A DNA stretch of 64,000 nt from NCBI RefSeq assembly GCF_947507565.1, contig NC_089192.1, positions 1,110,690 through 1,174,689 on the forward strand, written 5' to 3'. The stretch's first letter is position 1, and each line of letters opens with the position of its first letter. The notes beneath the pieces are model-generated. The model was not told where the DNA came from and did no database searches. It was given only the letters and a program-made list of their open reading frames with translations. Shown here in pieces: positions 1,234 to 21,307 of this stretch. Both the position numbers and the translations under genes were made by a program. Origin of the DNA: Oscarella lobularis (taxonomy: Eukaryota).

Positions 1234-3627
1234 ATGGCATCAAGTCTTGCCGATTTGTGCACGAGAAGCCTTTGCCGAACGGACTACGAGATCTCCTCGT
1301 TTCCATTTCCATCGATCGCCGAGAGAATCCTTCTCCACTCGTCGTCGCCGCGTCGACTGCCTCTTCCGGTCGCCAACGCGCTCTTCGAAGGCTTGGCGCA
1401 ACGAGGAAAACTGACGGAGAGAATTCTTCGCCTTCTCCTCGATCGAGATCGAGCGATCGTGACGTCACTTCCTCTCATTGGTCTCCGATCGATTCCTCAT
1501 GATGACGGAGAGACGACTTTCGCGCGTCGTCTTCGACAGCAAGCGTTCCTATGTCGCGTCGACGTATCGTTCAGTCATTGCGTCGGCGAACTTTCCGTGT
1601 CGCTTGTGAGCGCCTTTGCCGACACGTGCAAAGACACGTTGCTTTCGTTTTCGGCTAGTCACGTGACCGGAGATCTTGGCATTTCGCGACTGAAAGACTT
1701 TACGCGATTGCGTCACGTCGATCTTAGCTACACGTCGGCAACGCCGAGCGACATCGACGCCGTGTGCGGATCTTTGTCTCAGTTACGTCATCTCAACGTA
1801 TCCGGCACGGGTGTTAGTTGGTCTCAAGTCTTTGCTTCAGCACGAGGACTCAATAAATTGGAGTACCTTGGCATGAGCAATTTGGATTTTTTGACATTAG
1901 ACGAGTGGACATTAGCCTCTCAACCCTACTTCAGCAGTCAACGGATAACCGATTTCTTTTCCATCTTCACTAGGTTGTCGGCGCTAGACATTTCGGGAGT
2001 TAGATTGAAGGGATTGCCATTATTGGTAAACGCCGAGGCTTTTCTTTCGGCTACGTTTCGTGAAATTGTCACTGGGGCCCAGTCATTGACTCATCTCGAA
2101 ACGAGTTTTCCAGAACTCTCTGAAGTTGTAGCTGAATTGCAGGTCGGCAATCTATTTGACCAAATGAAGTATTTGGCTTATTATGGCAGCGTCATATCGA
2201 TTCCGGGTATTCTTTTGAACGCTGGGTGTCCTCGCTTTTTCTGCAGTCAAGTTTTATCTTCTGGGCCGTATAATTCAAGAGCGATATGCGAGAATAACGT
2301 CGATTTTGTGACGCTGGCTCTGAAAGGCGGACCGTCCTTTGGGATGACTGCTCTGAGAATTCCGTGGTTCTTCGATCGATGCGCGTCGTCATTGGATGCA
2401 GCCGATCGTCGTGACCTTCTTCGGCGCGTTATGTCGGCCGCTGTCGCCGTCGCCCGCTTCAAACTATTTCGCATCGCCGGCACGTTCGAGTCCAACGCCG
2501 AGACGTTTTTGATGAACGTTATTGATCTGAGAACAGCGCACAAGACGCATTGTCTCTCATGTTCAAAACCGTTGTTTAGGCCGAGACGCGGCTGTTGCAT
2601 TCTACCCGGAACGGTTCGTCGGCATCGTCGCTACGCCTTTGCCGGTGATTTTTCTGATTCGTTGATAAAGGGGCTGTGGGATCAGATGATTGAATCCTGT
2701 TTAGAAGCGGCTCTCAATCAACCTGCCGTTTTTCGACGCGACAGCAATGATCAAATCCTGTCCGCATTGTGCGCTGCGCTTTTCGTTACTCTTCCTCGAC
2801 CTCCGCTTCGGTTCGCTGCCTTGACGTTTTTTCTGATCGCGCTAACTGGAAAGGAAACTGGAACGCGACGTCTTTCCACTTGCAGAAAATGCGCTGATGA
2901 CGGCACGCCTATGTCGGTGGCACTAAAGTCGATTTTTGAGTCTCTTTCCGACAAAGAGCGTTGTGGGCTTGCGCTAGAAAAGATCTGGCTTGCTCCGGTG
3001 TGCAATCATGTGGAGGCGATATGCACGGAACTGGTAACATCATTGCTGGTTGCTGTAGATCAAGTATCTCTTTCTAGAATTCCTCTTCTCCATCGTGACA
3101 GTCGCCTTTTCTTCGACATCCTCTACTACATGTCCCGCGATCTGCCGGATCTGCAGCGGCGTTTGGTTCAAGACAGTAATCTGTTGACACTTCTGGAGTA
3201 CCACCGTCCAGAAGCGGAAAGATTAGATGCTGCATCGTCTCTGAGGCTGCTGATTATTCTAGCTGAGAACGAGTCTCTGAGATATCGTCTGCTTTCGAAG
3301 TCATCGTTGCAGATGCTCCTTGAATGCCATCCCTGTTTCGAGACCAGCTATCTTACTTGTCTACTTCTGCTGTGTGACGACGCTCATTGGCCGGCGGATG
3401 TGCTCTCTAAAGACGCAACGGCTTACAGAATGATTACATTGCGTGGCGACATGTTGACATCTTCTTTAGCCGAGGACACTCAGCGCTACAGGTATTCAAG
3501 CAATACTGTTGCACTTCTACAAGATATGGCTCGACGAACGGACGTTCCACCCCCAGTAGGCTGGTTTGGGATGCACGTTCTCTCAAGGATAGATCAGCGT
3601 GTACAGATAAACCCAGCTTGTATTTAG
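1234..3627 (+). CDS. ZYG11/ZER1-like LRR + ARM-like protein, paralog 1 (797 aa, single exon)
   Basis: Uninterrupted ORF starting at ATG 1234. The N-terminus 'SSLADLCTRSLCRT...FPSIAERIL' resembles the ZYG11B VHL/Cul2-box region 'SLLDICLNFLTT...FPQEVADRLL'. Central LRRs ('LRHVDLSYTSATPSDIDAVCGSLSQLRHLNVSGTGVS') resemble 'RLESLDISNTSITDITALL' of ZYG11B. The C-terminal half is helical and ARM-like. Three further paralogs are about 85-90% identical. The family assignment is tentative. Confidence 0.55.
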   Translation: MASSLADLCTRSLCRTDYEISSFPFPSIAERILLHSSSPRRLPLPVANALFEGLAQRGKLTERILRLLLDRDRAIVTSLPLIGLRSIPHDDGETTFARRLRQQAFLCRVDVSFSHCVGELSVSLVSAFADTCKDTLLSFSASHVTGDLGISRLKDFTRLRHVDLSYTSATPSDIDAVCGSLSQLRHLNVSGTGVSWSQVFASARGLNKLEYLGMSNLDFLTLDEWTLASQPYFSSQRITDFFSIFTRLSALDISGVRLKGLPLLVNAEAFLSATFREIVTGAQSLTHLETSFPELSEVVAELQVGNLFDQMKYLAYYGSVISIPGILLNAGCPRFFCSQVLSSGPYNSRAICENNVDFVTLALKGGPSFGMTALRIPWFFDRCASSLDAADRRDLLRRVMSAAVAVARFKLFRIAGTFESNAETFLMNVIDLRTAHKTHCLSCSKPLFRPRRGCCILPGTVRRHRRYAFAGDFSDSLIKGLWDQMIESCLEAALNQPAVFRRDSNDQILSALCAALFVTLPRPPLRFAALTFFLIALTGKETGTRRLSTCRKCADDGTPMSVALKSIFESLSDKERCGLALEKIWLAPVCNHVEAICTELVTSLLVAVDQVSLSRIPLLHRDSRLFFDILYYMSRDLPDLQRRLVQDSNLLTLLEYHRPEAERLDAASSLRLLIILAENESLRYRLLSKSSLQMLLECHPCFETSYLTCLLLLCDDAHWPADVLSKDATAYRMITLRGDMLTSSLAEDTQRYRYSSNTVALLQDMARRTDVPPPVGWFGMHVLSRIDQRVQINPACI

Positions 3628-3935: not shown

Positions 3936-4880
3936 TCATTTGCCAATGAGTCTCATTATTTCTGCTAATAAATTGACGCCAAGATTCTCCAACTTTTCAT
4001 CTTGGGATAGCTCCTTGTAGTGGCTCACGAAAAATTGCAGGCATTTCTCTCTCAAATCTCTAAAGCCGTACTTATCAGCAAGAAACAGATAATCAATAGC
4101 CGTTGCAGCTGAAACCGTCTTTGCCAAATAGGACATGCAGAAATCCCGCAGAGTGGAAATGAGAAAACGATCAGCCAATACCAATATATCCGGCATGTGG
4201 CTGCTGTATTTCTGTACGTCCAAGCAGCCAGTGAGAAGAAATGAAATGATTGCGTAGAACGATTCATAGGTAGCATCTTCAATAGCAGTTGGAGTGGATT
4301 CGGTCTCGGAAGATTTCCATTTCCACGAGAACATACTGTTGAAGTATTCGCTTCGAATGCAAAGAACCGATTTAGCGGTGACGGTGACGTGCTTTCCTTG
4401 AACTAAGAATACGGCTTTATCTGTAGAAACGATTTCTTCGTTGTCAATCAATTCCGCAAGATCATGTGAAAGTTCATCGAATGCTTTGAAGGAAGGAGGT
4501 GCAGCTTTTTGAAGGAAGGAGGTGCCACTCTCACTCTACGAACGGCCTTCTGCTCCGTAAAGTAAAGGTACCCCGACTTAGAATCAAAAAACAAATGACG
4601 AGGATAATACAATGACGCTAATTCGCCTTTGCCATCTGTAGACGCTGCCGCACCTGATCCGCAGAGAATTTCTTTTTCATTTGATGACAATGTCAGCTTG
4701 TAGATTCTATGCGAGAGATCAGAGAAGTAGACATTTCCGTCGTCGTCAACAGCAACACCATAAGGTGTATTGAGATTTTTTCAAACGGTTGAAACGTTGT
4801 GGTTTTTAATAAATCTTTCTGATAGCACCATTAGATCGGTCAGCCACATACACAGAACAGTCTGGTCCCACGGCTAATTG
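3936..4880 (-). pseudogene. NHL-BTB-BACK pseudogene fragment (BTB/BACK plus the last NHL blades; frameshifted, 5' part replaced by R4)
   Basis: ORF 3936..4451 encodes the BTB/BACK part ('DKAVFLVQGKHVTVTAKSVLCIRSEYFNSMF...'). The frame then switches to ORF 4448..4690. A TTAT insertion ('ggtttttaataaatctttc', about 4805) frameshifts blade 5. Homology ends at about 4880, where the R4 flank begins. Exons 1-2 are absent. The lesions are identical to the copy at 13725-14672. Confidence 0.6.
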
Positions 4881-5105
4881 ATCGTTGCATTGGAACGCGC
4901 CGAGCGACGTTGGAGGCGGCGCATATGAAATCGGCGGGAAAGCGCGGACGACGCGTCGACGGCCAATCGTTGCTCAGCGTTCGCCATCTACGGTAGGTAC
5001 ATGTACGCTCGCCGAAGCGGCGAGAAGGCGCGCATTGTAGCGCACGCTGTGAGTGACGGGACGGATCTTAGCAGGGATCTCTGTACCAAGTTCATCTGTT
5101 CTCCA

Positions 5106-7493
5106 ATGGCATCAAGTCTTGCCGATTTGTGCACGAGAAGCCTTTGCCGAACGGACTACGAGATCTCCTCGTTTCCATTTCCATCGATCGCCGAGAGAAT
5201 CCTTCTCCACTCGTCGTCGCCGCGTCGACTGCCTCTTCCGGTCGCCAACGCGCTCTTCGAAGGCTTGGCGCAACGAGGAAAACTGACGGAGAGAATTCTT
5301 CGCCTTTTCCTCAATCGCGATCGAGCAATGGTGACGTCACTTCCTCTCATTGGTCTCCGATCGATTCCTCGTGATGACGGAGAGACGACTTTCGTGCGTC
5401 GTCTTCAACAGCAAGCGTTCCTATGTCGCGTCGACGTATCGTTCAGTCATTGCGTCGGCGAACTTTCGGTTTCGCTTGTGAGCACCTTTGCCGACACGTG
5501 CAAAGACACGTTGCTTTCGTTTTCGGCTAGTCACGTGACCGGAGATCTTGGTATTTCGCGACTGAAAGACTTCACGCGATTGCGTCACGTCGATCTTAGC
5601 TACACGTCGGCGACGCCGAGCGACATCAACGCCGTGTGCGGCTCCTTGTGTCAGTTGCGTCATCTCGACGTATCCGGCACTGACGTTAGTTGGTATCACG
5701 TCTTTGGTTCGGCACGAGGACTCGATCAATTGGAGTACCTTGGCATGAGCGATTTGGTATTTTTGACATTAGACGAGTGGACGCTTGTCTCACAACCCTA
5801 CTTCAGCACTCGATGGATAACCAATTTCTTTTTGGTTACCACTAGGTTGTCTACACTCGACATTTCAGGAGTTATATGTAAGGGATTGCCATCAGACAAG
5901 TCTATTCTTTCAGCTGCATTTCATGAAATTGTCACTGGGGCACGGTCATTGACTCATCTCGAAACGAGTTTTCCAAAACTCCCTGAAGTTGTAGCTGGAT
6001 TGCAGCTCGGCAATCTATTTGACCAAATGAAGTATTTGGCTTATTATGGCGTCGTCACATCAATTCCAGATATTCTTTTGAACGCTGGGTGTCCTCGCTT
6101 TTTCTGCAGTACATCTTCTCGGCCACATCATTCAAGAGCGATAGACGTGAATAACGTCGATTTTGTGACGCTGGCTCTGAAAGGCGGACCGTCCTTTGGG
6201 ATGACTGCTCTGGGAATTCCGCGGTTATTTTATCGATGCGCGTTGTCATCGGATGCAGCCGATCGTCGTGACCTTCTTCGGCGCGTTATGTCGGCCGCTG
6301 TCGCCGTCGCCCGCTTCAAACTATTTCGCATCACCGGCACGTTCAAGTCCAACGCCGAGACGTTTTTGATATACGTTATTTATCTGAGAACAGCGCACAG
6401 GACGCATTGTCTCTTATGTTCAAAACCGTTGCCGAGACGCGGCTGTTGCTTTCGACCCAGACCGGTTCGTCGCTACGCCTTTGCCGATGATTTTTCTGAT
6501 TCATCGATAAAGGAGCTGTGGGATCAGATGGTTGAATCCTGTTTAGAAGCGGCTCTCAATCAACCTGCCGTTTTTCGACGCGACAGCAATGATCGAATTC
6601 TGTCTGCATTGTGCGCTGCGCTTTTCGTTACTCTTCCTCGACCTCCGCTTCGGTTCGCTGCCTTGACGTTTTTTCTGAACGCGCTAACTGGAAAGGAAAC
6701 TGGAGTTACGAGACGTCTTTCCACTTGCAGAAACTGCGCTGATGACGGCACGCCTGTGTCGGTGGCACTAAAGTCGATTTTTGAGTCTCTTTCCGACCAA
6801 GAGCGTCGTGGGCTTGCGCTAGAAAAGAACTGGCTTGCTCCGGTGTGCAATCACGTGGAGGCGATATGCACGGAACTGGGAACGTCATTGCTGGTTGCAG
6901 ATCGAACATTTCTTTCTAGAATTCCTCTTCTCAATCGTGACAGTCGCCTTTTCTTGGACATCCTCTACTACATGTCCCGTGATCTGCCGGATGTGCAGCG
7001 GCATTTGGTTCAAGACAGTAATCTGTTGACACTTCTGCCATTGTATTCATCGCCACCGGTGCACCACCACCGTCCAGAAGTGGAAAGATTAGATGCCGCG
7101 TCATCTCTGAGGGTACTGATTATTCTAGCTGAGAACGAGTCTCTGAGACATCGTCTGCTTTCGACGTCATCGTTGCAGATGCTCCTTGAATTTCATCCCT
7201 GTTTTGAGACCAGCTATCTTACTTGTCTACTTCTGCTGTGTGACGACGCTCCTTGGCCGGCGGATGTGCTCTCTAAAGACGCAATGGCTTACAGAATGAT
7301 TACATTGCGCGGCGACATGTTGACATCTTCTTTAGTAGAGGACACTCAGCGCTGCAGGTATTCAAGCAATACTGTTGCACGTCTACAAGATATGGCTGGA
7401 CGAAAGGACGTTCCACCCCCAGTAGGCTGGTTTGGGATGTACGTTCTCTCAAGGATGGATCAGCGTGTACAGATAAACCCAGCTTCTATTTAG
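5106..7493 (+). CDS. ZYG11/ZER1-like LRR + ARM-like protein, paralog 2 (796 aa from the conserved ATG)
   Basis: The ORF-track entry 5001..7493 starts earlier, but the conserved start 'MASSLADLC' is the ATG at 5106-5108. Otherwise colinear with paralog 1. Confidence 0.55.
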   Translation: MASSLADLCTRSLCRTDYEISSFPFPSIAERILLHSSSPRRLPLPVANALFEGLAQRGKLTERILRLFLNRDRAMVTSLPLIGLRSIPRDDGETTFVRRLQQQAFLCRVDVSFSHCVGELSVSLVSTFADTCKDTLLSFSASHVTGDLGISRLKDFTRLRHVDLSYTSATPSDINAVCGSLCQLRHLDVSGTDVSWYHVFGSARGLDQLEYLGMSDLVFLTLDEWTLVSQPYFSTRWITNFFLVTTRLSTLDISGVICKGLPSDKSILSAAFHEIVTGARSLTHLETSFPKLPEVVAGLQLGNLFDQMKYLAYYGVVTSIPDILLNAGCPRFFCSTSSRPHHSRAIDVNNVDFVTLALKGGPSFGMTALGIPRLFYRCALSSDAADRRDLLRRVMSAAVAVARFKLFRITGTFKSNAETFLIYVIYLRTAHRTHCLLCSKPLPRRGCCFRPRPVRRYAFADDFSDSSIKELWDQMVESCLEAALNQPAVFRRDSNDRILSALCAALFVTLPRPPLRFAALTFFLNALTGKETGVTRRLSTCRNCADDGTPVSVALKSIFESLSDQERRGLALEKNWLAPVCNHVEAICTELGTSLLVADRTFLSRIPLLNRDSRLFLDILYYMSRDLPDVQRHLVQDSNLLTLLPLYSSPPVHHHRPEVERLDAASSLRVLIILAENESLRHRLLSTSSLQMLLEFHPCFETSYLTCLLLLCDDAPWPADVLSKDAMAYRMITLRGDMLTSSLVEDTQRCRYSSNTVARLQDMAGRKDVPPPVGWFGMYVLSRMDQRVQINPASI

Positions 7494-7777
7494 GGCTCTA
7501 ATATTTAGAGAAGGCTGCTCCTTTTCTCTACTAGAATTAGTGCTACAGGTAGATCGTGTCTGAGATCAGAGATTCTTTTTATTTATTTTTTAAAATTTAG
7601 GTTTATAACCCTTGTTTAGAATTATAATGTAGCGAGGGTATTTCTGCTACATCTTCTCGCGACAAATCTCAAACATTTACCATTCGGATATTTTGAATTG
7701 CAGAAAACGCAGCTTAGCAAAAAAATAAGGCAGAAGTTGACAAACACAAACAGAGAGAATCGCGTCAGTTACGTGAG

Positions 7778-9370
7778 TTATTTGCCAATGAGTCTGATTA
7801 TTTCTGCTAATAACTTGACGCCAAGACTCTCAAACTTTTCATCTTGGCAAAGTACTTTGTAGTGAATCGCGACAAATTGCAGGCATTTCTCTCTCAAATC
7901 TCTAAAGCCGTAATTATCAGCAAGAGACAGATAATCAATAGCCGTTGCAGTCGAAACGGTCTTTGCCAAATAGGCCATGCAAAAATCACGCAGAGTGGAA
8001 ATGAGAAAACGATCAGCCAATATCAATATATCCGGCATGTTGCTGCTGTATTTCTGTACGTCCAAGCAGCCAGTGAGAAGAAATGAAATAATTGCGTAGA
8101 ACGATTCATAGGTAGCATCTTTGATAGAAATTGGATTGGATTCGGTCTCGGAAGATTTCCAATTTGACGAGAACATCCTGTTGAAGTAATCACTTCGAAT
8201 GCAAAGAACCGATTTAGCGGTGACGGTGACGTGCTTTCCTTGAACTAAGAATACGGCTTTATCTGCAGAAACGATTTCTTCGTTGTCGATCAATTGCGCA
8301 AGATCATGTGAAAGTCCGGCGTCATTAAATGCAGGAGGGGCTGCTTTTGCTGCCTCGAAGGAAGGAGGTGCCACTCTCACTCTACGAACGGCCTTCGGCT
8401 CAGTAAAGTAAAGGTACCCCGACTTGGAATCGAAAAACAAATGACGAGGATCTTTCAATGACGCTAATTGGCCTTTGCCATCTATAGACGCTGCTTCACC
8501 TGATCCGCAGAGAATTTCTTTTTCACTTGATGATGATGCCAGCTTGTAGATTCTACGCAAGCGATCAGAGAAGTAGACATTTCCGTCATCGTCAACAGCC
8601 ACACTATAAGGTTGGTTGAGATTTTTACAAACGGTTGAAACGTGGTGGTTTTTAATCTTTCTGATAGCACCATTTAATTGGTCAGCCACATACACAGAGC
8701 CGTCTGGTCCCACGGCTAATTGATTTGGGCTATTAAATTTGGCTTCAGCACAGTGACCATCAATGTTGCCTGGTTGGCCTGCGGAGCCTGCTAGCGTTGT
8801 TACGCGTCCATCAACCTCAATTCGACGTATTGCATGTCCGCCATGAGAAGACACTAAGACACTGCCATCTTGTAGTGCCACAATCCCCAATGGGTGATTG
8901 AATTGAGCTTCAGTAAGGCCTACTCCATCTCGTTCTCCACAGCTCCCATTGCCAGCTAATGTAGAGACGGTGTCACCACTCAGCTGCGAGAACGTTTTAT
9001 ACTCAGAACCGTGGCACATCTGTATCATTACCTTTCGAATGCGACAGTTGGCGTAGTCAGCAACAAAGAGACAAGAGCCGGACGAGGCAATGCCTCCTGG
9101 TTTGGAAAATGTCGCCGAGTTCAAAGTACCATCTTGGTGACCGGATCGGCTGGGAATCCCAGCATGGGTCGAGAGTTCCTGAGAGGAAAGATCAACTTTC
9201 CATATGCATTGTTGACCGTGATCTGCGACACACATTTGATCGTCTAAAATCGTGATTCCCCACAAGCACGAGAACGACTCGTGACGTGACGCAGTCGAGA
9301 GATATCCGTCTAAAAACGGAAAAGAGGCACGCTCAAATGTTTTTCACAAACGGAACTCCTTACATTCCAT
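7778..9370 (-). CDS. NHL(6 blades)-BTB-BACK protein, array copy 2 (3 exons)
   Basis: Exon 1 coding part is only 'ATGGAAT' (plus 9364-9370, rc) with donor GTAAGG. Intron 1 is 9310-9363 (54 nt, acceptor ttttccgtttttag). Exon 2 is 9309-9032. Intron 2 is 8984-9031 (48 nt, GTAATG...TCTCGCAG; in-frame and stop-free, so the ORF track reads through it). Exon 3 is 8983-7778. NHL blades include 'LAVGPDGSVYVAD', 'YSVAVDDDGNVYFSD' and 'GAIRKI'. The BTB domain includes 'DKAVFLVQGKHVTVTAKSVLCIRSDYFNRMF...ATYESFYAIISFLLTG', followed by a BACK-like helical region. The track 'M' at 9265 is a TTG codon. Confidence 0.7.
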
Positions 9371-11009: not shown

Positions 11010-13391
11010 ATGGCTTCAAGTCTTGCCGATTTGTGCACAAGAAGCCTTTGCCGAACGGACTACGAGATCTCCTCGTTTCCATTTCCAACGATATCCGAGA
11101 GAATCCTTCTCTACCCGTCGTCGCCGCGTCGACTGCCTCTTCCGGTCGCCAACGCGCTCTTCGAAGGCTTGGCGCAACGAGCAAAACTGACGGAGAGAAT
11201 TCTTCGCCTTTTCCTCGATCGAGATCGAGCGATGGTGACGTCACTTCCTCTCATTGGTCTCCGATCGATTCCTCGTGATGACGGAGAGACGACTTTCGTG
11301 CGTCGTCTTCGACAGCAAGCGTTCCTATGTCGCGTCGACGTATCGTTCAGTCATTGCGTCGGCGAACTTTCCGTGTCGCTTGTGAGCGCCTTTGCCGACA
11401 CGTGCAAAGACACGTTGCTTTCGTTTTCGGCTAGTCACGTGACCGGAGATCTTGGCATTTCGCGACTGAAAGACTTTACGCGATTGCGTCACGTCGATCT
11501 TAGCTACACGTCGGCGACGCCGAGCGACATCGACGTCGTGTGCGGCTCCTTGTGTCAGTTACGTCATCTCGACGTATCCGGCACTGACGTTAGTTGGTAT
11601 CGCGTCTTTGGTTCGGCGCGAGGTCTCGATCAATTGGAGTACCTTGGCATGAGCGATTTGGTATTTTTGACATTAGACCAGTGGACGCTTGTCTCTCAAC
11701 CCTACTTCAGCACTCGATGGATAACCAATTTCTTTTTGGCTACCACTAGGTTGTCTACGCTCAACATTTCAGGAGTTATATGTAAGGGATTGCCATCAGA
11801 CAAGTCTATTCTTTCAGCTGCATTTCATGAAATTGTCACTGGGGCACGGTCATTGACTCATCTCGAAACGAGTTTTCCAGAACTCCCTGAAGTTGTAGCT
11901 GGATTGCAGCTCGGCAATCTATTTGACCAAATGAAGTATTTGGCTTATTATGGCATCGTCACATCAATTCCAGATATTCTTTTGAACTCTGGGTGTCCTC
12001 GCTTTTTCTGCGATACATCTTCTGGGCTACATTGTTCAAGAGCGATAGACGTAAATAACGTCGATTTTGTGACGCTGGCTCTGAAAGGCGGACCGTCCTT
12101 TGGGATGACTGCTCTGGGAATTCCGTGGTTATTTGATCAATGCGCGTCGTCATTGGATGCGGCCGATCGTCGTGACCTTCTTCGGCGCGTTATGTCGGCC
12201 GCTGTCGCCGTCGCCCGCTTCAAACTATTTCGCATCACCGGCACGTTTGAGTCCAACGCCGAGACGTTTTTGATATACGTTATATGTCTGAGAACAGCGC
12301 ACAGGACGCATTGTCTCTTATGTTCAGAACCGTTGTTTAGGCCGAGACGCCGCTGTTGCATTCTACCCGGACCGGTTCGTCGGCATCGTCGCTACGCCTT
12401 TGCTGGTGATTTTTCTGATTCGTCGATAAAGGAGCTGTGGGATCAGATGATTGAATCCTGTTTAGAAGCGGCTCTCAGTCAACCTGCCGTTTTTCGACGC
12501 GACAGCAATGATCGAATCCTGTCTGCATTGTGCGCTGCGCTTTTCGTTGCTCTTCCTCGACCTCCGCTTCGGTTCGCTGCCTTGACGTTTTTTCTGAACG
12601 CGCTAACTGGAAAGGAAACTGGAACGAGACGTCTTTCCACTTGCAAAAAATGCGGTTATGACGGCACGTTGCCTATGTCGGTGGCACTAAAGTCGATTTT
12701 TGAGTCTCTTTCCGACCAAGAGCGTCGTGGGCTTGCGCTAGAAAAGAACTGGCTTGCTTCGGTGTGCAATCACGTGGAGGCGATGTGCACGGAACAGGGA
12801 ACATTATTGCTGGGTGCACATCGAATATCTCTTCCTCTTCTCAATCGTGAAAGTCGCCTTTTCTTTGACATCCTCTACTACATGTCCCGTGATCTGCCGG
12901 ATGTGCAGCGACGTTTGGTTCAAGACAGTAATCTGTTGACACTTCTGCCATGGTATTCATGGCCGCCGGTGAACCACTGTCCAGAAGTGGAAAGATTAGA
13001 TGCTGCGTCATCTCTGAGGGTACTGATTATTCTAGCTGAGAACGAGTCTCTGCGACATCGTCTGCTTTTTTCGACGTCATTGTTGCATATGCTCCTTGAA
13101 TTTCATCCCTGTTTTGAGACCAGCTATCTTACTTGTCTACTTCTGCTGTGTGACGACGCTCATTGGCTGGCGGATGTGCTCTCTAAAGACGACATGGCTT
13201 ACAGAATGATTACATTGCGTGGCGACATGTTGACATCTTCTTTAGCCGAGGACACTCATCGCTACAGGTATTCAAGCAATACTGTTGCACTTCTACAAGA
13301 TATGGCTCGACGAACGGACGTTCCACCCCCTGTAGGCTGGTTTGGGATGTACGTGCTCTCAAGGATGGATCAGCGTGTACAGATACAGTAA
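11010..13391 (+). CDS. ZYG11/ZER1-like LRR + ARM-like protein, paralog 3 (793 aa)
   Basis: ATG at 11010. Uninterrupted ORF colinear with paralogs 1 and 2. Confidence 0.55.
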   Translation: MASSLADLCTRSLCRTDYEISSFPFPTISERILLYPSSPRRLPLPVANALFEGLAQRAKLTERILRLFLDRDRAMVTSLPLIGLRSIPRDDGETTFVRRLRQQAFLCRVDVSFSHCVGELSVSLVSAFADTCKDTLLSFSASHVTGDLGISRLKDFTRLRHVDLSYTSATPSDIDVVCGSLCQLRHLDVSGTDVSWYRVFGSARGLDQLEYLGMSDLVFLTLDQWTLVSQPYFSTRWITNFFLATTRLSTLNISGVICKGLPSDKSILSAAFHEIVTGARSLTHLETSFPELPEVVAGLQLGNLFDQMKYLAYYGIVTSIPDILLNSGCPRFFCDTSSGLHCSRAIDVNNVDFVTLALKGGPSFGMTALGIPWLFDQCASSLDAADRRDLLRRVMSAAVAVARFKLFRITGTFESNAETFLIYVICLRTAHRTHCLLCSEPLFRPRRRCCILPGPVRRHRRYAFAGDFSDSSIKELWDQMIESCLEAALSQPAVFRRDSNDRILSALCAALFVALPRPPLRFAALTFFLNALTGKETGTRRLSTCKKCGYDGTLPMSVALKSIFESLSDQERRGLALEKNWLASVCNHVEAMCTEQGTLLLGAHRISLPLLNRESRLFFDILYYMSRDLPDVQRRLVQDSNLLTLLPWYSWPPVNHCPEVERLDAASSLRVLIILAENESLRHRLLFSTSLLHMLLEFHPCFETSYLTCLLLLCDDAHWLADVLSKDDMAYRMITLRGDMLTSSLAEDTHRYRYSSNTVALLQDMARRTDVPPPVGWFGMYVLSRMDQRVQIQ

Positions 13392-13724: not shown

Positions 13725-14672
13725 TCATTTGCCAATGAGTCTCACTATTTCTACTACTAACTTGACGCCAAGACTCTCAAACTTTTCATCTTGGCAGAGT
13801 ACTTTGTAATTGCTCACGACAAATTGCAGGCATTTCTCTCTCAAATGTCTAAAGCCGTACTTATCGGCAAGAGACAGATAATCAATAGCCGTTGCGGTTG
13901 AAACGGTCTTTGCCAAATAGGCCATGCAAAAATCACGCAGAGTGGAAATGAGAAAACGATCAGCCAATACCAATATATCCGGCATGTTGTTGCTGTACTT
14001 CTGTACGTCCAAGGAGCCAGTGAGAAGAAATGAAATGATTGCGTAAAACGATTCATAGGTAGCATCTTTTACAGAAATTGGAGTGGATTCGGTCTCGGAA
14101 GATTTCCAATTCGACGAGAACATACTGTTGAAGTAATCACTTCGAATGCAAAGAACCGATTTAGCGGTAACGGTGACGTGCTTTCCTTGAACTAAGAATA
14201 CGGCTTTATCTGTAGAAAGGATTTCTTCGTTGTCAATCAATTCCGCAAGATCATGTGAAAGTTCATCAAATGCTTTGAAGGAAGGAGGTGCTGCTTTTTT
14301 GAAGGAAGGAGGTGCCACTCTCACTCTACGAACGGCCTTCTGCTCCGTAAAGTAAAGGTACCCCGACTTAGAATCAAAAAACAAATGACGAGGATAATAC
14401 AATGACGCTAATTCGCCCTTGCCATCTGTAGACGCTGCCGCACCTGATCCGCAGAGAATTTCTTTTTCATTTGATGACAATGTCAGCTTGTAGATTCTAT
14501 GCGAGAGATCAGAGAAGTAGACATTTCCGTCGTCGTCAACAGCAACACCATAAGGTGTATTGAGATTTTTACAAACGGTTGAAACGTTGTGGTTTTTAAT
14601 AAATCTTTCTGATAGCACCATTAGATCGGTCAGCCACATACACAGAACAGTCTGGTCCCACGGCTAATTGAT
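13725..14672 (-). pseudogene. NHL-BTB-BACK pseudogene fragment (duplicate of the 3936-4880 fragment)
   Basis: ORF 13725..14639 covers NHL blades 5-6 and BTB/BACK. The same TTAT insertion and TAA as at about 4805 recur here ('agaaagatttattaaaaacc', about 14610). Upstream homology ends at the R4 junction (about 14655-14672). There are no 5' exons. Confidence 0.6.
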
Positions 14673-14891
14673 CGTTGCATTGGAACGCGTCGAGCGACGT
14701 TGGAGGCGGCGCATATGAAATCGGCGGGAAAGCGCGGACGACGCGTCGACGGCCAATCGTTGCTCAGCGTTCGCCATCTACGGTACATGTACGCTCGCCG
14801 AAGCGGCGAGAAGGCGCGCATTGTAGCGCACGCTGTGAGTGACGGGACGGATCTTAGCAGGGATCTCTGTACCAAGTTCATCTGTTCTCCA

Positions 14892-17285
14892 ATGGCATCA
14901 AGTCTTGCCGATTTGTGCACGAGAAGCCTTTGCCGAACGGACTACGAGATCTCCTCGTTTCCATTTCCATCGATCGCCGAGAGAATCCTTCTCCACTCGT
15001 CGTCGCCGCGTCGACTGCCTCTTCCGGTCGCCAACGCGCTCTTCGACGGCTTGGCGCGACGAGGAAAACTGACGGAGAGAATTCTTCGCCTTTTCCTCGA
15101 TCGCGATCGAGCGATGGTGACGTCACTTCCTCTCATTGGTCTCCGATCGATTCCTCGTGATGACGGAGAGACGACTTTCGTGCGTCGTCTTCGACAGCAA
15201 GCGTTCCTATGTCGCGTCGACGTATCGTTCAGTCATTGCGTCGGCGAACTTTCCGTGTCGCTTGTGAGCGCCTTTGCCGACACGTGCAAAGACACGTTGC
15301 TTTCGTTTTCGGCTAGTCACGTGACCGGTGATCTTGGTATTTCGCGACTGAAAGACTTCACGCGATTGCGTCACGTCGATCTTAGCTACACGTCGGCAAC
15401 GCCGAGCGACATCAACGCCGTGTGTGGCTCCTTGTCTCAGTTGCGTCATCTCGACGTATCCGGCACTGACGTTAGTTGGTATCACGTCTTTGGTTCGGCG
15501 CGAGGACTCGATCAATTGGAGTACCTTGGCATGAGCGATTTGGTATTTTTGACATTAGACGAGTGGACGCTTGTCTCTCAACCCTACTTCAGCACTCGAT
15601 GGATAACCGATTTCTTTTTGGTTACCACTAGGTTGTCTGCGCTCAACATTTCAGGAGTTAATATTAAGGGATTGCCATTAGACGAGTCTATTCTTTCAGC
15701 TGCATTTCATGAAATTGTCACTGGGGCACGGTCATTGACTCATCTTGAAACGAGTTTTCCAGAACTCCCTGAAGTTGTAGCTGGATTGCAGCTCGGCAAT
15801 CTATTTGACCAAATGAAGTATTTGGCTTATTATAGGGCCGTCACATCGATTCCGGATATTCTTTTGAACGCTGGGTGTCCTCGCTTTTTCTGCAGTAGTA
15901 GTAGTATGTCTTATGGGTTACATTATTCAAGAGCGATGTACGTGAATAACGTCGATTTTGTGACGCTGGCTCTGAAAGGCGGACCGTCCTTTTGGGTGAC
16001 TGTTCTGAGAATTCCGTGGTTATTTGATCAATGCACGTTGTCGTCATTGGATGCAGCCGATCATCGTGACCTTCGGAGCGTTATGTCGGCCGCTGTCGCC
16101 GTCGCCCGCTTCAAACTATTTCGCGTCACCGGCTCCAGCGCCGACGCCGAGCCGTTTTTGACGGACGTTATTTGTCTGAGAACAGAGCACAGGGCGTATT
16201 GTCTCCTATGTTCAAAACCGTTTAGGCTGGGACTCGGCTGTTTCATTCAACTCGGAACGATTCGTCGCAACTCCTTTGCCGGTGATTTTTTTGAATCTGA
16301 TTCGTTGATAAAGGAACTGTGGGATCAGATGATTGAATCCTGTTTAGAAGCGGCTCTCAATCAACCTGCCGTTTTTCGACACGACAGGAATGATGAAATC
16401 CTGTCTGCATTGTGCGCTGCGCTTTTCGTTACTTTTCCTCGACCTCCTCTTCGGTTCGCTGTCTTGACGTTTTTTCTGAACGCGCTAACTGGAAAGGAAA
16501 CTGGAACGCGACGTCTTTCCACTTGCCAAAAATGCGCTGATGACGGCAGGCTGCCTATGTCGGTGGCACTAAAGTCGATTTTTGAGTCTCTTTCCGACAA
16601 AGAGCGTTGTGGGCTTGCGCTAGGAAAGAACTGGCTTGCTCCTGTGCGCGATCACGTGGAGGCGATAGGCACAGAAATGGAAACATCATCGCTGGTTGCT
16701 GTTTATCGCAACGATATAGATCGAGTATCTCTTTCTACTAGTAGAATTCCTCTTCTCCATCGCCTTTTCTTGGACATCCTCTACTACATATCCCGCGATC
16801 TGCCGGATGTGCAGCGGCGTTTGGTTCAAGACAGTAATCTGTTGACACTTCTGGAGCACCAGGGAAGATTAGATGCTGCATCATCTCTGAGGCTGCTGAT
16901 TATTCTAGCTGAGAACGAGTCTCTGAGACATCATCTGCTTTCGAAGTCATCGTTGCAGATGCTCCTTGAATGCCATCCCTGTTTCGAGACCAGCTATCTT
17001 ACTTGTCTACTTCTGCTGTGTGATGACGCTCATTGGCCGGTGAATGTGCTTTCTAAGGACGCAATGGCTTACAGAATGATTTCATTGCGCGGCGACATGT
17101 TGACATCTTCTTTAGCCGAGGACACTCAGCGCTACAGGTATTCAAGCAATACTGTTGCACTTCTACAAGATATGGCTCGACGAACGGACGTTCCACCAGT
17201 AGGCTGGTTTGGGATGCACGTTCTCTCAAGGATGGATCAGCGTGTACAGATAAACCCAGCTTGTATTTATGGCTCTAATATTTAG
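14892..17285 (+). CDS. ZYG11/ZER1-like LRR + ARM-like protein, paralog 4 (798 aa from the conserved ATG)
   Basis: The track ORF 14700..17285 starts at a TTG codon. The conserved start 'MASSLADLC' is ATG 14892-14894. Confidence 0.55.
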   Translation: MASSLADLCTRSLCRTDYEISSFPFPSIAERILLHSSSPRRLPLPVANALFDGLARRGKLTERILRLFLDRDRAMVTSLPLIGLRSIPRDDGETTFVRRLRQQAFLCRVDVSFSHCVGELSVSLVSAFADTCKDTLLSFSASHVTGDLGISRLKDFTRLRHVDLSYTSATPSDINAVCGSLSQLRHLDVSGTDVSWYHVFGSARGLDQLEYLGMSDLVFLTLDEWTLVSQPYFSTRWITDFFLVTTRLSALNISGVNIKGLPLDESILSAAFHEIVTGARSLTHLETSFPELPEVVAGLQLGNLFDQMKYLAYYRAVTSIPDILLNAGCPRFFCSSSSMSYGLHYSRAMYVNNVDFVTLALKGGPSFWVTVLRIPWLFDQCTLSSLDAADHRDLRSVMSAAVAVARFKLFRVTGSSADAEPFLTDVICLRTEHRAYCLLCSKPFRLGLGCFIQLGTIRRNSFAGDFFESDSLIKELWDQMIESCLEAALNQPAVFRHDRNDEILSALCAALFVTFPRPPLRFAVLTFFLNALTGKETGTRRLSTCQKCADDGRLPMSVALKSIFESLSDKERCGLALGKNWLAPVRDHVEAIGTEMETSSLVAVYRNDIDRVSLSTSRIPLLHRLFLDILYYISRDLPDVQRRLVQDSNLLTLLEHQGRLDAASSLRLLIILAENESLRHHLLSKSSLQMLLECHPCFETSYLTCLLLLCDDAHWPVNVLSKDAMAYRMISLRGDMLTSSLAEDTQRYRYSSNTVALLQDMARRTDVPPVGWFGMHVLSRMDQRVQINPACIYGSNI

Positions 17286-17595
17286 AGAAGGCTGCTCCTT
17301 GTCTCCACTAGAATTAGTGCTACAGGTAGATCGTGTCTGAGATCAGAGATTCTTTTTATTTATTTTTTAAATTTCGGTTTATAACCCTTGTTTAGAATTA
17401 TAACGTAGTGGGCGTATTTCTGCTACATCTTGTCGCGACAAATCTCAAAGGTTTACCATTCGCATACCGCTCAGCAAGAGACAGACAATGTAGAAAGTTA
17501 CAGAAAACGCAACTAAGCAAAAAGGCAGAAAAACGTTGAGAAACAAGGCGTGCACTAAACAAACAGAGAGAATCACGTCCAGTCAGCTACGTGAG

Positions 17596-19157
17596 TCATT
17601 TGCCAATGAGTCTCATTATTTCTACTACTAACTTGACACCAAGACTCTCAAACTTTTCATCTTGGCACAGTACTTTGTAGTGGCTCACGACAAATTGCAG
17701 GCATTTCTCTCTCAAATCTCTAAAGCCGTACTTATCAGCAAGAGACAGATAATCAATAGCCGTTGCAGCTGAAACTGTCTTCGCCAAATAGCTCATGCAA
17801 AAATCACACAGAGTGGAAATTAGAAAACGATCAGCCAATATCAATATATCCGGCATGTTGCTGTTGTACTTCTGTACGTCCAAGCAGCCAGTGAGAAGAA
17901 ATGAAATGACTGCGTAGAACGATTCATAGGTAACATCTTCAATAGCAATTGGAGCGGATTCGGTCTCTGAAGATTTCCAATTCGACGAGAACATCCTGTT
18001 GAAATATTCACTTCGAATGCAAAGAACCGATTTAGCGGTGACGGTGACGTGCTTTTCTTGAACTAAGAAAACGGCTTTATCTGTAGAAACGATTTCTTCG
18101 TTGTCAATCAATTGCGCAAGATCATGTGAAAGTTCATCAAATGCTTTGAAGGAAGGAGGTGCCACTCCCACTCTACGAACGGCCTGCAGTTCGGTAAAGT
18201 AAAGGTACCCCGACTTGAAATCGAAAAACAAATGACGAGGATCGTTCAATGACGCTAATTCGCCTTTGCCATCTATAGACGCTGCTTCACCTGTTCCACA
18301 GAGAATTTCTTTCTCAATCGATGAGGATGCCAGCTTGTAGATTCTATGCGAGCGATCAGAGAAGTAGACATTTCCGTCATCGTCAACAGCCACACCATAA
18401 GGTGTGTTGAGATTTTTACAAACGGTTGAAACGTGGTGGTTTTTAATCTTTCTGATAGCACCATTGTTTCGGTCAGCCACATACACAGAACCGTCTGGTC
18501 CCACGGCTAATTGATCCGGATTATTAAATTTGGCTTCAGTACAGTGACCATCAATGTTGCCTGATTGACCTGCGGAGCCTGCTAACGTTGTTACGCGTCC
18601 ATCAGCTTCAATTTGACGTATTGTATGTCCGCCATGAGAAGACACTAAGACACTGCCATCTTGTAGTGCCACAATCCCGAATGGGTGATTGAGTTGAGCT
18701 TCAGTAAGGCCTACTCCATCTCGTTCTCCACAGGTGCCATTGCCAGCTAATGTAGAGACGGTGTCACCACTCAGCTGCGAGGGCGTTTTATACTCAGAAT
18801 CGTGGCAAATCTGTATCATTCACCTTTCGAACGCGATTGCCGCTGTAGTCAGCGACGAAGAGACAAGAACCGGAGGAGGAGGCAATGCCTGTTGGATTGG
18901 AAAATTTCGCCGAGATCAAAATACCGTCTTTGTGACCGCGACTGGATTGACCGGGAATCCCAGCATGGGCCGAGACTGCTTGAGAGGTAAGATCAACTTT
19001 CCAAATGCAGTTTTGACTGCTGTCTGCGACACACACTTGATCGTTTAGGATTGTGATTCTCCACAAGTACGAGAACGATTCGTGACGTGACACAGTCGTG
19101 ACAGATCCGTCTAAAACGGAAAGGAAGCGTGAAGGCTCAAGTACTAACGGCCCTCTT
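17596..19157 (-). CDS. NHL-BTB-BACK protein, array copy 4 (3 exons, apparently intact)
   Basis: Exon 1 'ATGGAAT' at plus 19151-19157 with donor GTAAAG. Intron 1 is about 50 nt. Exon 2 runs 19093-18824. Intron 2 is 18775-18823 (49 nt, GTGAAT...CCTCGCAG). Exon 3 runs 18774-17596. The apparent frameshift between ORFs 18794..19093 and 17596..18819 lies inside intron 2. Confidence 0.65.
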
Positions 19158-20222
19158 TACATTCCATTTGACCAGGGTCCGGCTGGGCAAGAAAACTGGC
19201 TGGGAAGGGCAGGGCTAGAGAGCACGGATCTTAGCTTAGACGAATGCCCAGGGGCGTCGCCACCGGCCCGGCCGGTCCGGCGCGAGCCGGGCCAATGTTT
19301 TCCAAAATAAAAACTATTTTTAGCAAGATAAACCGAGCCAAAATAGAATCTGTTAGAAAGGACATTGCATACGTGTACGATCATAGTGAAACCCGAAAGT
19401 TGGGCTTCCCGGACATAGCTACGGTATGTCCGAAGTTCGACATAAAGTCCGACTCTGACAGTTTGGTCGATTTGAGTATAATAAAGTTTTCTAAAGATAC
19501 AACAGAAAGAGCACGTGAATCCAACAAAGTGAACTTATTTAATGATTCTTCATTCTCTAAGTATTTACGATAAACATACATGAAACCTAATTGCACAAGT
19601 GGGCGTGGTCGAAAAAATTTTTCGCGGGCGCAAAACTACTCTCTCTCTATAAGCCGGGCCAAACGAAAAATCGATGCGACGCCCCTGATGCCTAGCTCTG
19701 TGCCTAAAAGAGTGACAACACGCGCGTTAGAAGTCAAAGCTTCCTGAGCCTTCCTCGCCATCTGCTTCTAACGGTTCTCTTCCCGTGTTTGACCGGATTC
19801 GAAACGCAGATTTGTACGTCGACCATCAGTTTGAAGTCCCCGCGCGATCGTTCGACGACTTCCACCCTAGATTCGGCGCTACGACACTTCCAACTTCGAT
19901 ACGCTTCGTACAGGCGAAACAAAGCATTCTAGCATCGATTCCTCTTGCAGAAGAATGGAGGTGTCGATCCTTGGACGGTACAAGAACATCCAAGTGTCCT
20001 GGAAGATCCATTCGAAGTCTTTTTGCTAGAAAGTTTGCTCTGAATCTCTTTTGGCACCCAATTTTCTCGCAGTCGTTTCCGACGAAGTAGGCAGATCGCA
20101 AGATTTTGAGAAAATCAACCGAAAAGAGTTTACATTGGAGAGGGTGGGATAGCTCATTTCCTTTCACATATTTGTGGCTTTTTTAATTCATAGAATTACT
20201 CTCTTCGCTAGAGCCAATTTCT

Positions 20223-20489
20223 ATGAGTCCGAGGGCTCATAGATTGTCTCCCCTGGCTATAGAGCCAATTTCATACAAATCGAGGTCTCATAGAATTTCT
20301 CTCCTGGCTATAGAGCCAATTTCTATGAGGCAAGGTCTCACAGAATTTTGCTCCTGCAATTACTATGAGACAAGGTCTCATAGAACTTCTCTCCTGGCTT
20401 TCTATGAGTCAAGGGCTCATAGAATTTCTCTCCGCCTGGCTACAGCTAATTTCTATGAGTCCAGACGAAGCAGAACGCTATCTGGTTAG
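20223..20489. repeat. Minisatellite, about 44-48 bp unit x about 5.5
   Basis: Unit 'tctcatagaattTctctcctggctatagagccaatttctatgagNcNagg'. A shorter 2-unit version of the same motif occurs in every R1/R2 junction (for example 9900-9990 and 23460-23550). Confidence 0.7.
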
Positions 20490-21307
20490 TTCATTGCGTC
20501 CTCGTTGAAACCTTAGACTATTCCCGCTCCTCCGCCCCTCCGTTTACATTATTTGAGAGCGGATACACTGTCGTTTGCGTGCCGAGTGTAGCGCACGCTT
20601 GACTAGCCCGACGTAGCGCCTTGATTTTGCCGACCAAGCCCACTGCCGTTACTACGTATGCGTTCGCTTTTCGCGTCCAAATAGCGTCCGGATGTCTGTA
20701 GAATAGATCGACAATGCATTTTGCGACGAATTCATCGCTTCTACGGCTCGTTTCGCGTCGTTTCGCGATGCGTGGACAGTTGACGTCATGCGTTGCTCAA
20801 TGTAGCGTGACAGGGCGTGTCTTGCGTACGTATGCACACTCTTTTTGGCGTTTTGATTTGATTTCGAACAAAATTTCGCTCGTTTTTGCCGGCAGAAATG
20901 CATTTGGGGCCGATTGACGGTATTTTGGGTTCTAACGCCGCACTCTTGATCGTGAATAGCTGCAGTCGTTCCGCTCCAGTCGCGTATCAATATAAATACC
21001 CAGCGTTTACAAGTACTAATCAGAGAGGAGCAGAGAGAGCTCGTGGCTAAGATAGAAGGGAGGCTGGCAACTCTCCCTAAGATTGTGTCTGAGATTAGAG
21101 ATTCTTTTTATTTATTTAGTCTTAACCCTTGTTTAGAATTATAAAGTTGCGAGCGTATTTCTGCTACATCTTGTCGCCACAAATCTCAAACATTTACCCT
21201 TCGGATATTTTGAATTGCAGAAAACGCAACTAAGCAAAAAATAAGGCAGAAAAACGTTGAGAAACAAGGCATGCACTAAACAAACAGAGAGAATCGCGTC
21301 CAGTCAG

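Follow-up and report, generated by a model that had tools for sequence, protein, structure and literature searches.

The 64,000-nt window analysed here, a single stretch of the genome of the sponge Oscarella lobularis, contains four intronless tandem paralogs resembling ZYG11/ZER1. All four genes lie on the forward strand, namely c1 at positions 1234-3627 (an intronless open reading frame of 797 aa, identical to database protein P0005 across all 722 aa that P0005 covers), c2 at 5106-7493 (795 aa from MASSLADL, in a frame open from 5001), c3 at 11010-13391 (793 aa) and c4 at 14892-17285 (797 aa from MASSLADL, in a frame open from 14700). The coordinates of a first-pass annotation, which had reported short hypervariable patches, fall in c2, and c4 matches a RefSeq 'uncharacterized protein [Oscarella lobularis]' (P0004). 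Pairwise identity among the four genes is 93-95.5% for coding DNA and 86-91% for protein. A family profile search yielded 27 representatives (50% clustering, E<1e-10), and the ten best full-length matches, which were looked up, all belonged to homoscleromorph sponges wherever a species was named. The four reading frames are best explained as young tandem duplicates within a branch of ZYG11/ZER1 specific to homoscleromorph sponges.

Two haplotigs of this region differ in the copy found at the c4 position, where divergence between the haplotypes is roughly 10%, and in the number of neighbouring NHL-BTB genes. Between c3 and its allele on the second haplotig there are 15 nucleotide differences. 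A conserved pairing of the family with NHL-BTB genes was considered and rejected, as the other family loci examined (L002 and L003) were without NHL-BTB neighbours; the association in the window is probably just co-duplication.

The label 'ZYG11-like', given to these genes in the first-pass annotation, was borne out by profile-profile comparison and by structure matches. The sponge-clade profile reached proteins carrying the Pfam domains ZER1-like_2nd (E=4e-38) and LRR_Zer-1, and hhalign aligned it with those ZER1-like proteins over their full length (99.9%, E=1.8e-33, 664 columns). A wider family profile matched the structures of ZYG11B and ZER1 with E=2e-23; the wider alignment was required, since the narrow profile found no ZYG11B match in the PDB. 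Direct Pfam scans of c1 and c2 brought neither PF25013 nor PF22964 to E<=0.01, and the sole Pfam match of c2 at this threshold, PhyR_sigma2, was dismissed as unrelated and below its own cutoff (17 bits versus 27). Sister sponge paralogs fell just under the threshold for PF25013, the Zer-1-type LRR (25-27 bits), and the LRR region of the paralogs was aligned by hhalign at 99.9%. For the C-terminal half, hhalign spanned its whole length against PF22964-bearing proteins (E=4e-38), and the family profile matched the ARM crystal structures of ZYG11B and ZER1 with E of about 1e-17. An AlphaFold model of c2 (m3ac3346cbcda), built from a 25-sequence alignment, reached a pLDDT of 78 and a pTM of 0.78 and displayed alternating strand/helix repeats in the LRR region; a run with 10 sequences (pLDDT 52) was discarded. 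The top Foldseek match of this model in the PDB was 9lk2_A, full-length human ZYG11B-EloB-EloC (E=1.6e-10, TM 0.51-0.55), and identity between the sponge paralogs and ZYG11B is about 14%. Each copy combines a BC-box/Cul2-box-like module at its N-terminus with some ten predicted leucine-rich repeats and, at the C-terminus, an armadillo-like helical domain, the layout of substrate receptors of CUL2-RING ligases.

The N-terminal module carries a BC-box-like motif, SLADLCTRSL (c2 residues 4-13, positions 5115-5144), followed by a Cul2-box-like motif, FPFPSIAERILL (c2 residues 23-34, positions 5172-5207). Both are invariant in 4/4 copies, conform to the VHL-box pattern (S/T/P)LxxxCxxx(hydrophobic) with subsequent Cul2 box, and have aligned counterparts at the N-terminal end of ZER1-like proteins as well as in ZYG11B, at S17-L26 and V49-L59, respectively. 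Within the ZYG11B BC box residues L18, I21, C22 and L26 contact EloC, and the Cul2 box residues are F50, P51, V54 and L58 (PMC13201589). The paralogs match L18, I21, C22, L26, F50, P51 and L58, and these motifs would be expected to mediate binding of EloC and CUL2.

The Gly/N-degron pocket of ZYG11B is formed by W522, N523, D526, N567, E570, A647 and R649 (PMC13201589), for which we took equivalent residues from a HMMER alignment. In the helix DILYYMSRD (c2 618-626, positions 6957-6983), Y621, Y622 and R625 align with W522, N523 and D526; Y621 and R625 are invariant in 10/10 aligned family members and Y622 nearly so. In the helix LIILAENE (c2 671-678, positions 7116-7139), I673 and E676 align with N567 and E570, E676 being invariant. 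The third element, RCRYSS (c2 749-754, positions 7350-7367), has invariant R751, Y752 and S753, and its Y752 and S754 align with A647 and R649 in the ARM7-ARM8 linker of ZYG11B. Only E570 has an identical counterpart (E676) and W522 a conservative one (Y621), whereas the sponge proteins carry Y, R, I, Y and S at the places of N523, D526, N567, A647 and R649. Because of these replacements, recognition of Gly/N-degrons by the sponge paralogs appears unlikely. The pocket-equivalent residues are nevertheless invariant among the four paralogs and conserved within the sponge clade, and they lie outside the variable patches. A 'recognition surface', one of two readings that had been proposed for the patches, therefore cannot mean the canonical ZYG11B pocket.

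Every patch peptide quoted in the first-pass annotation was found at its given place, and in the model the patches form loops that emerge from a conserved LRR and ARM frame and coincide with segments of low confidence (pLDDT<50). Patch a (c2 residues 335-348, positions 6108-6149) connects the last LRR strand to the first ARM helix (pLDDT<50 at 337-345) and has a dN/dS ratio (w) of 2.2; its equivalents lie at 2245-2292 in c1, 12012-12053 in c3 and 15894-15944 in c4. Patch b (residues 440-463, 6423-6494; w=5.8) is a long inter-helix loop (pLDDT<50 at 431-456), with equivalents at 2566-2652, 12327-12413 and 16215-16289 in c1, c3 and c4, respectively. Patch c (residues 589-614, 6870-6947; w=3.8) directly precedes the helix equivalent to W522/N523/D526 (pLDDT<50 at 597-610) and corresponds to 3025-3105 in c1, 12789-12857 in c3 and 16671-16763 in c4. 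Patch d (residues 645-663, 7038-7094; w=4.4) directly precedes the helix equivalent to N567/E570 (pLDDT<50 at 651-659) and corresponds to 3196-3228, 12948-13001 and 16854-16874 in the same order.

Two further variable stretches had been overlooked. One, 'e', is a loop after a beta-strand in the LRR domain (c2 residues 257-268, positions 5874-5909) with three codons at P(w>1)>0.9. The other is an indel-bearing loop, TGKETGVTRRLSTCRNCADDGT (c2 residues 528-549, positions 6687-6752; pLDDT<50 at 530-547), with a site at column 558, and appears to be an ARM H2-H3 loop. Together with patches c and d this loop aligns with H2-H3 loops, and those of ZYG11B (N420/H421, E460 and Q499/Q503) form a back-to-back dimer interface. 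A grouping on one face is suggested for patches c and d only.

Columns variable at the amino acid level were clustered along the alignment (dispersion index 1.50 versus 0.77 permuted, p=0.0002), whereas columns with only synonymous variation showed no clustering (p=0.22). Differences within patches had been described as wholesale replacement, for which we considered compensated frameshifts as a cause. These were rejected, since all MAFFT gaps were multiples of three and the codon alignment resolved the patches mostly into single-base changes and in-frame indels. Slippage in simple repeats or low-complexity sequence was discarded as well, Tandem Repeats Finder detecting only a weak 14-nt pair in the c3 patches.

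In the patches dN was 0.219 versus a dS of 0.064 (ratio 3.4), with a dS of 0.075 outside them and a flanking intergenic divergence of 0.05-0.10 (about 0.08). Replacement divergence is about three times both the synonymous and the intergenic value, and the individual ratios of 2.2-5.8 arise at normal dS. The choice of patches for their variability was corrected for by a scan simulation that assumed w=1, the observed number of synonymous changes and a uniform mutation rate; the four best windows held 65 replacements versus 44.4 +/- 3.6 simulated (maximum 58 in 1000). This correction is limited by the synonymous density in the patches, which was 1.2-1.5 times background. CpG hypermutation of the Arg-rich patches was rejected, with a CpG-context fraction of 0.205 inside versus 0.210 elsewhere; CpG transitions made up 13/67 patch changes and CpG observed/expected was 1.3. 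The neighbouring NHL-BTB genes, used as an internal control with the same method, gave w of 0.33-0.57.

Site models were fitted to four or five sequences with our own implementation, not PAML. M2a was favoured over M1a with an LRT of 44.5 (p=2e-10; 44-58 under all three topologies), compared to at most 5.2 in neutral simulations, although recombination and multi-nucleotide mutations can both inflate such tests. About 5% of codons were placed at dN/dS 9-12 and the background class at w ~0.9, and relaxed constraint is therefore pervasive. Among ten sites with a posterior above 0.9, only three were located in patches a-d, three in the LRR stretch and four were scattered, none of them before codon 257. 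A ratio at or below 1 throughout with low-complexity indels, the outcome that the first-pass annotation had set against its own claim, was not observed. In a small number of codons, replacements and in-frame indels build up at several times the rate of change at synonymous or intergenic sites, and most of this change is gathered in surface loops, i.e. an LRR loop, the LRR-ARM linker and ARM inter-helix loops.

Such a pattern might also be produced by tolerant, indel-prone surface loops free of constraint, with the excess stemming from complex or multi-nucleotide mutation near indels and from residual misalignment. We regard this as a serious rival, although a less probable one. Indels occur in every patch, the patches coincide with low-confidence loops, the same loops differ in length across the wider family, and the bulk of the gene already evolves at w ~0.9. 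The likelihood ratio points both ways, as removal of gap-adjacent columns lowered it to 19.5 but left it significant (p=6e-5). On the other hand dS in the patches is not raised, as the values above show, the changes are mostly isolated and single-base, and columns more than two codons from any gap still carried 0.88 replacements per codon versus 0.21 elsewhere. The tolerant-loop explanation gains some weight from the independent pair P0006/P0007, chosen a priori as a replicate. Differences in this pair were enriched in the same loops (p=0.002), but dS and dN were both doubled there and no excess was seen (loop w 0.60 versus 0.56 elsewhere); P0007 may be a pseudogene. Two more distant clusters of near-identical copies (the P0013 and P0010 groups) showed no loop enrichment, which tells against diversifying selection. 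If the loops were mere tolerant linkers, the array would be an ordinary young tandem gene family.

Redundant young copies drifting neutrally towards pseudogenes could show variability devoid of functional meaning, and the whole-gene dN/dS of 0.76-0.96 (NG86) or 1.19 (M0) would fit such decay, as would the lack of any Pfam domain reaching threshold. We consider this highly improbable. No stop codon occurs in the four copies, although 307 or more substitutions would by expectation have produced 10.1 (P=3e-5), and all of the approximately 18 indel sites in the coding sequences are multiples of three, in contrast to the adjacent 300-nt 3' intergenic spacer with indel lengths of 1, 2, 4, 5, 7, 14, 17 and others. 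Dispensable copies would also hardly be expected to show a dN/dS of 0.36 over the N-terminal 180 codons, and a related transcript was found in O. pearsei, c4 moreover having a RefSeq gene model. Selection preserves an intact reading frame in every copy and acts as a constraint on the N-terminal module. Most of the LRR/ARM scaffold is drifting almost neutrally.

Gene conversion between copies shuffles variants at this locus. From codon 100 to 300 a haplotig copy (h5) shows no difference from c2, informative sites conflict with one another (29, 8 and 6 in favour of the three possible groupings), copy-specific changes occur in blocks (c1 codons 200-300, c4 codons 300-600), and 13/17 allelic differences carry a state found in another paralog. 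Further, the ZYG11-like genes have a dS of 0.056-0.089, whereas that of the NHL-BTB genes next to them is about twice as high. These observations would also suit a mosaic in which most of the gene was homogenised repeatedly and indels blocked conversion in the patches, which would have retained older divergence. As an account of the patches this is unlikely, since older divergence would lift dS and dN together, whereas dS in the patches is at the background level and synonymous variation shows no clustering.

We therefore prefer diversifying selection on peripheral, partner-contacting loops, to which we assign a probability of roughly 0.55. Of the two readings offered originally, a diversifying recognition surface or relaxed loops, the former retains support from the selection signal in the loops once it is moved away from the canonical pocket, and the latter is weakened. 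Under diversifying selection each paralog would dock to a common ligase core and keep its central pocket alike, and the paralogs would differ in what binds at the periphery, possibly an extended substrate or the other subunit of a dimer. One may go further and propose a polymorphic, sponge-specific recognition locus, in which a common docking module and pocket are combined with hypervariable ARM/LRR loops that set a foreign, self or paralog partner, with diversifying or balancing selection preserving variation that conversion reshuffles. This extension is doubtful at present. If it were true, the divergent haplotypes at c4 and the varying copy number of the NHL-BTB (CUL3-type) genes would be signs of a locus for immunity or allorecognition, or of a selfish element, comparable to the hyperdivergent regions of Caenorhabditis that hold zyg-11-like genes and zeel-1.

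To our knowledge, the only large ZYG11/ZER1 expansion described before is that of Caenorhabditis, the source of the zeel-1 antidote gene. Expansion of E3 receptors is usually interpreted as driven by pathogens or by intragenomic conflict. If the selection reading is true, this separate and rapidly evolving expansion, in an animal lineage that branched off early, would indicate that expansion and diversification of E3 receptors is a recurrent animal strategy. The array would also offer a compact natural experiment, in which four near-identical receptors differ mainly in a few loops and the role of the non-pocket surfaces of ZYG11-type proteins becomes addressable.

Human ZYG11B and ZER1, the CRL2 Gly/N-degron receptors (PDB 9LK2, 9BID, 7EP0-7EP5), share with the sponge proteins a VHL-box-like N-terminus followed by LRR and ARM domains, the LRR domain of the sponge proteins being a predicted one, but the linker between BC box and Cul2 box is short in the sponge. 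One or two conserved ZYG11/ZER1 genes are the rule in animals (PMC3144186), in contrast to the multi-copy, rapidly evolving tandem array found here. In Caenorhabditis the zyg-11-like genes, including zeel-1, have expanded from 1-2 genes to many in tandem arrays, with a locus at which the haplotypes are strongly diverged both in sequence and in the genes they contain (PMC3144186). The sponge expansion is likewise lineage-specific but independent, and the locus, known here from its sequence, has NHL-BTB genes as neighbours, with no transmembrane fusion or linked toxin seen. The combination of a conserved docking end with fast loops has precedents in other expanded families of ubiquitin-ligase receptors. 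According to Thomas 2006, as relayed in PMC8120010, F-box and MATH-BTB families of nematodes and plants conserve the cullin/adaptor-docking motif and have raised replacement rates and positively selected sites in the remainder of the protein; these genes also form tandem arrays with copy-number variation (PMC8120010). The sponge array is similarly lineage-expanded in tandem, with four copies in the window, and pairs a docking end at w=0.36 with patches at w=2.2-5.8, values that come from few sequences with recombination present. Unlike the F-box and MATH-BTB proteins, the sponge receptors belong to a class with a CUL2-type VHL box, LRR and ARM domains, and their putatively selected sites, as judged from four or five sequences, lie in peripheral loops beside invariant pocket equivalents.

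The window carries four tandem ZYG11-like paralogs, c1 to c4, each a long intronless open reading frame (ORF) on the + strand starting at a common MASSLADL (c1, 1234-3627; c2, 5106-7493, in which the region highlighted by the first-pass annotation falls; c3, 11010-13391; c4, 14892-17285). They are 86-91% identical in protein and 93-95.5% in coding DNA, alternate with - strand NHL+BTB(+BACK) genes, and have exact or near-exact database matches named "uncharacterized protein [Oscarella lobularis]", which assigns the window to this homoscleromorph sponge. Upstream of MASSLADL the frame stays open for 35 codons in c2 (5001-5105) and 64 in c4 (14700-14891), and the gene models of RefSeq and ENA begin at these upstream positions. 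Since this extension is shut by stops or a frame change in c1 and c3, MASSLADL is likely the true start.

A Pfam search gave no match for c1, a single unrelated, sub-threshold PhyR_sigma2 match for c2 (17 bits; cutoff 27), and no ZYG11/ZER1-family match for either. The designation "ZYG11-like", proposed from the sequence alone, was borne out, as regards homology and architecture, by profile, model and N-terminal motif matches. A profile of the sponge copies found 68 proteins among 1.84 billion representatives, 27 of them at E<1e-10; for the ten best full-length matches, the sources that name a species were O. lobularis, O. pearsei and Corticium candelabrum only. The remoter matches P0021, P0024 and P0034 carry two Pfam domains, LRR_Zer-1 and, with E-values as low as 4e-38, ZER1-like_2nd. 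In a profile-profile comparison, 664 columns of the narrow Oscarella clade, nearly the full length, aligned to these proteins (probability 99.9%, E=1.8e-33). The wider family profile matched human ZYG11B (9BID, 9LK2; E=2e-23) and also ARM-domain crystal structures of ZYG11B and ZER1. The AlphaFold model of c2, built with 25 family members (pLDDT 78, pTM 0.78), had full-length ZYG11B-EloB-EloC (9lk2_A) as its best Foldseek match in the PDB (E=1.6e-10, TM 0.51-0.55). At the N-terminus, SLADLCTRSL ... FPFPSIAERILL aligns with the BC box and Cul2 box of ZYG11B, whose contact residues are L18, I21, C22, L26, F50, P51, V54 and L58 (PMC13201589).

ZYG11B holds the N-terminal glycine degron by W522, N523, D526, N567, E570, A647 and R649 (PMC13201589). 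The residues of c2 (numbered from MASSLADL) that align to this pocket are, in order, Y621, Y622, R625, I673, E676, Y752 and S754, so that E570 alone is identical. With the charge of D526 reversed to R and A647 replaced by Y, recognition of a glycine degron seems unlikely. These seven positions were invariant or nearly so in all ten aligned sponge sequences, including paralogs at 56% identity. Judged by these residues, the sponge proteins are not complete members of the ZYG11 family.

The four copies are kept intact by selection despite a high whole-gene dN/dS (0.76-0.96 by NG86, 1.19 under M0). At least 307 substitutions separate them, and 3.3% of random changes with the observed transition/transversion mix would create a stop; no stop codon was found in c1-c4 versus about 10 predicted (P=3e-5). 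All of the roughly 18 indel sites in the coding sequences are multiples of three, and the 300-nt spacer directly downstream showed indels of 1, 2, 4, 5, 7, 14, 17 and other lengths among its four copies. Codons 1-180 had a dN/dS of 0.36. The NHL-BTB neighbours, analysed in the same way, gave pairwise dN/dS of 0.33-0.57 at dS of 0.08-0.19 and thus show both tighter constraint and greater divergence than the ZYG11-like copies.

The first-pass annotation had described four short hypervariable patches (exact c2 coordinates from the present analysis: a, 6108-6149; b, 6423-6494; c, 6870-6947; d, 7038-7094). Every peptide it quoted was found in c1-c4, and the patchiness is real: amino-acid-variable columns were clustered (dispersion 1.50 versus 0.77 permuted, p=0.0002), and clustering of synonymous-only variable columns was not significant (p=0.22). 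Two further variable stretches, absent from that description, lie at 5874-5909 in the LRR domain and 6687-6752 in a loop of c2. Codon-aware alignment resolved the patches into point substitutions and indels, every one a multiple of three, which rules out compensated frameshifts as their origin. Tandem Repeats Finder detected no repeat in the patches able to account for the indels; its sole signal across all patches was a weak imperfect 14-nt direct repeat of 1.9 copies in patch a of c3 (12006-12032).

Pooled over c1-c4, patches a-d showed dN 0.219, dS 0.064 and dN/dS 3.4, compared with dN 0.050, dS 0.075 and dN/dS 0.67 for the gene outside them. Intergenic divergence between copies was 0.05-0.10. 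Measured against these two independent neutral references, replacements in the patches are therefore about threefold faster, with no rise in the patches' own synonymous rate. As the patches had been picked for their variability, we used a scan-type neutral simulation with dN/dS=1 everywhere, a matched synonymous count and the four richest equal-length windows kept per replicate; 65 replacements were observed in such windows versus 44.4 +/- 3.6 simulated (maximum 58, 1000 replicates). Columns separated from every gap by more than two codons still carried 0.88 replacements per codon versus 0.21 elsewhere. CpG mutation failed to account for the excess.

With our own GY94/F3x4 likelihood implementation of the site models, M2a was preferred to M1a on the main topology (2dlnL=44.5, p=2e-10) and assigned 4.9% of codons a dN/dS of about 11.7. 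The statistic was 55.1 and 58.5 on the remaining two four-taxon topologies and 19.5 (p=6e-5) without gap-adjacent columns; 14 neutral simulations gave 0 to 5.2 (M0 dN/dS 0.76-1.23). Of the ten sites with posterior >0.9, three fell in patches a-d, three in the LRR stretch and four were scattered. Recombination and multi-nucleotide mutations are known sources of false positives in such tests. Gene conversion among the copies is real: informative sites backed conflicting groupings (29, 8 and 6), and 13 of the 17 nucleotide differences between c2 and c3 and their alleles on the other haplotig (L001, ENA ERZ18545485 atg000076l; 271-2763 and 6290-8673) matched the state in another paralog, seven of them common to just a subset of paralogs. 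Allelic replacements hit codons that also vary between paralogs, e.g. alignment columns 423, 432 and 461. The copy at the c4 position of L001 (P0002, 10178-12529) was identical to c2 over codons 100-300, then about 10% diverged, and outside this tract was about equally far from all four window copies, which indicates a mosaic with a recent gene-conversion or unequal-crossover tract. We compared window positions 15230-29700 and L001 10500-18800 as haplotigs. Haplotig identity was 99.3-100% across c2 and c3, falling to about 90% within c4, and beyond c4 NHL-BTB copy number was unequal before the Spondin gene; this c4-to-Spondin segment is hyperdivergent and structurally variable.

In an a-priori replicate, the sister paralogs P0006 and P0007, the same loops differed at 33% versus 16% (p=0.002), with no dN/dS excess (0.60 versus 0.56 elsewhere) and a doubled dS. 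The N-terminus of P0007 is disrupted: at its locus (L003, 5522-7902) the gene caller reads the N-terminal ~125 codons in a different frame, so that this copy is probably either a pseudogene with a frameshift or a product of misassembly. Two remoter near-identical clusters showed no loop enrichment. Given the scattered sites, the gene conversion and a replicate without dN/dS excess, the claim of positive selection is not clean, and the replacement excess may be adaptive.

The main c2 model segments with pLDDT <50 (337-345, 431-456, 530-547, 597-610 and 651-659) correspond, in that order, to patches a and b, the additional loop at 6687-6752, and patches c and d. Since variable alignment columns depress model confidence, this match is to some extent circular. 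Shorter segments were 409-414, 492-495, 745-750 and the C-terminal tail 786-795. In the alignment with ZYG11B, the helices bearing the W522/N523/D526 and N567/E570 equivalents are directly preceded by the loops of patches c and d, respectively. Helix order in the model suggests that both, with loops 492-495 and 530-547, would occupy the same (H2-H3) loop position in four successive ARM repeats. Patches c and d thus probably lie along one ridge peripheral to the pocket, which would fit the initial idea of a single face. The corresponding loops of human ZYG11B hold N420/H421, E460 and Q499/Q503, part of the back-to-back dimer interface and not of the degron groove (PMC13201589), so the matching ridge there is a protein-protein interface.

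The NHL-BTB genes (3936-4451, 7778-9265, 13725-14639, 17596-19093, 21308-22411, 24243-25754, 27147-28259, 57205-58410 and 59688-60890, all -), some truncated, form an array convergent with the ZYG11-like genes that extends past them. They look like CUL3-type adapters and were absent at the other ZYG11-like loci, L002 and L003. A gene at 33159-34523 (-) encodes two Spondin_N domains (E=1.5e-86) behind a signal-peptide-like N-terminus. Three further ORFs (61945-62754, 63133-63741 and 47491-48282, all +) include one Sushi/CCP domain, one weak galactose-binding (F5/8 type C-like) match and one EDR1/CTR1/ARMC3 peptidase-like domain (E=1.7e-18).

In the most likely mechanism, each paralog would dock onto the same ligase core via its conserved N-terminus and present an identical central pocket, the copies differing in a handful of exposed loops that would contact either a partner protomer or extended substrate parts. 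This variation would be generated and shuffled by tandem duplication, in-frame indels, selection-favoured point substitutions and gene conversion. The pattern is like that of expanded F-box and MATH-BTB adapter families, which keep the cullin-docking motif conserved, with positive selection in the remainder (PMC8120010; Thomas 2006 as cited there). The only large expansion described for the ZYG11 family is that of Caenorhabditis, with 19-37 genes versus 1-2 in most animals, which includes tandem arrays and gave rise to zeel-1 (PMC3144186); the sponge array adds an independent second case.
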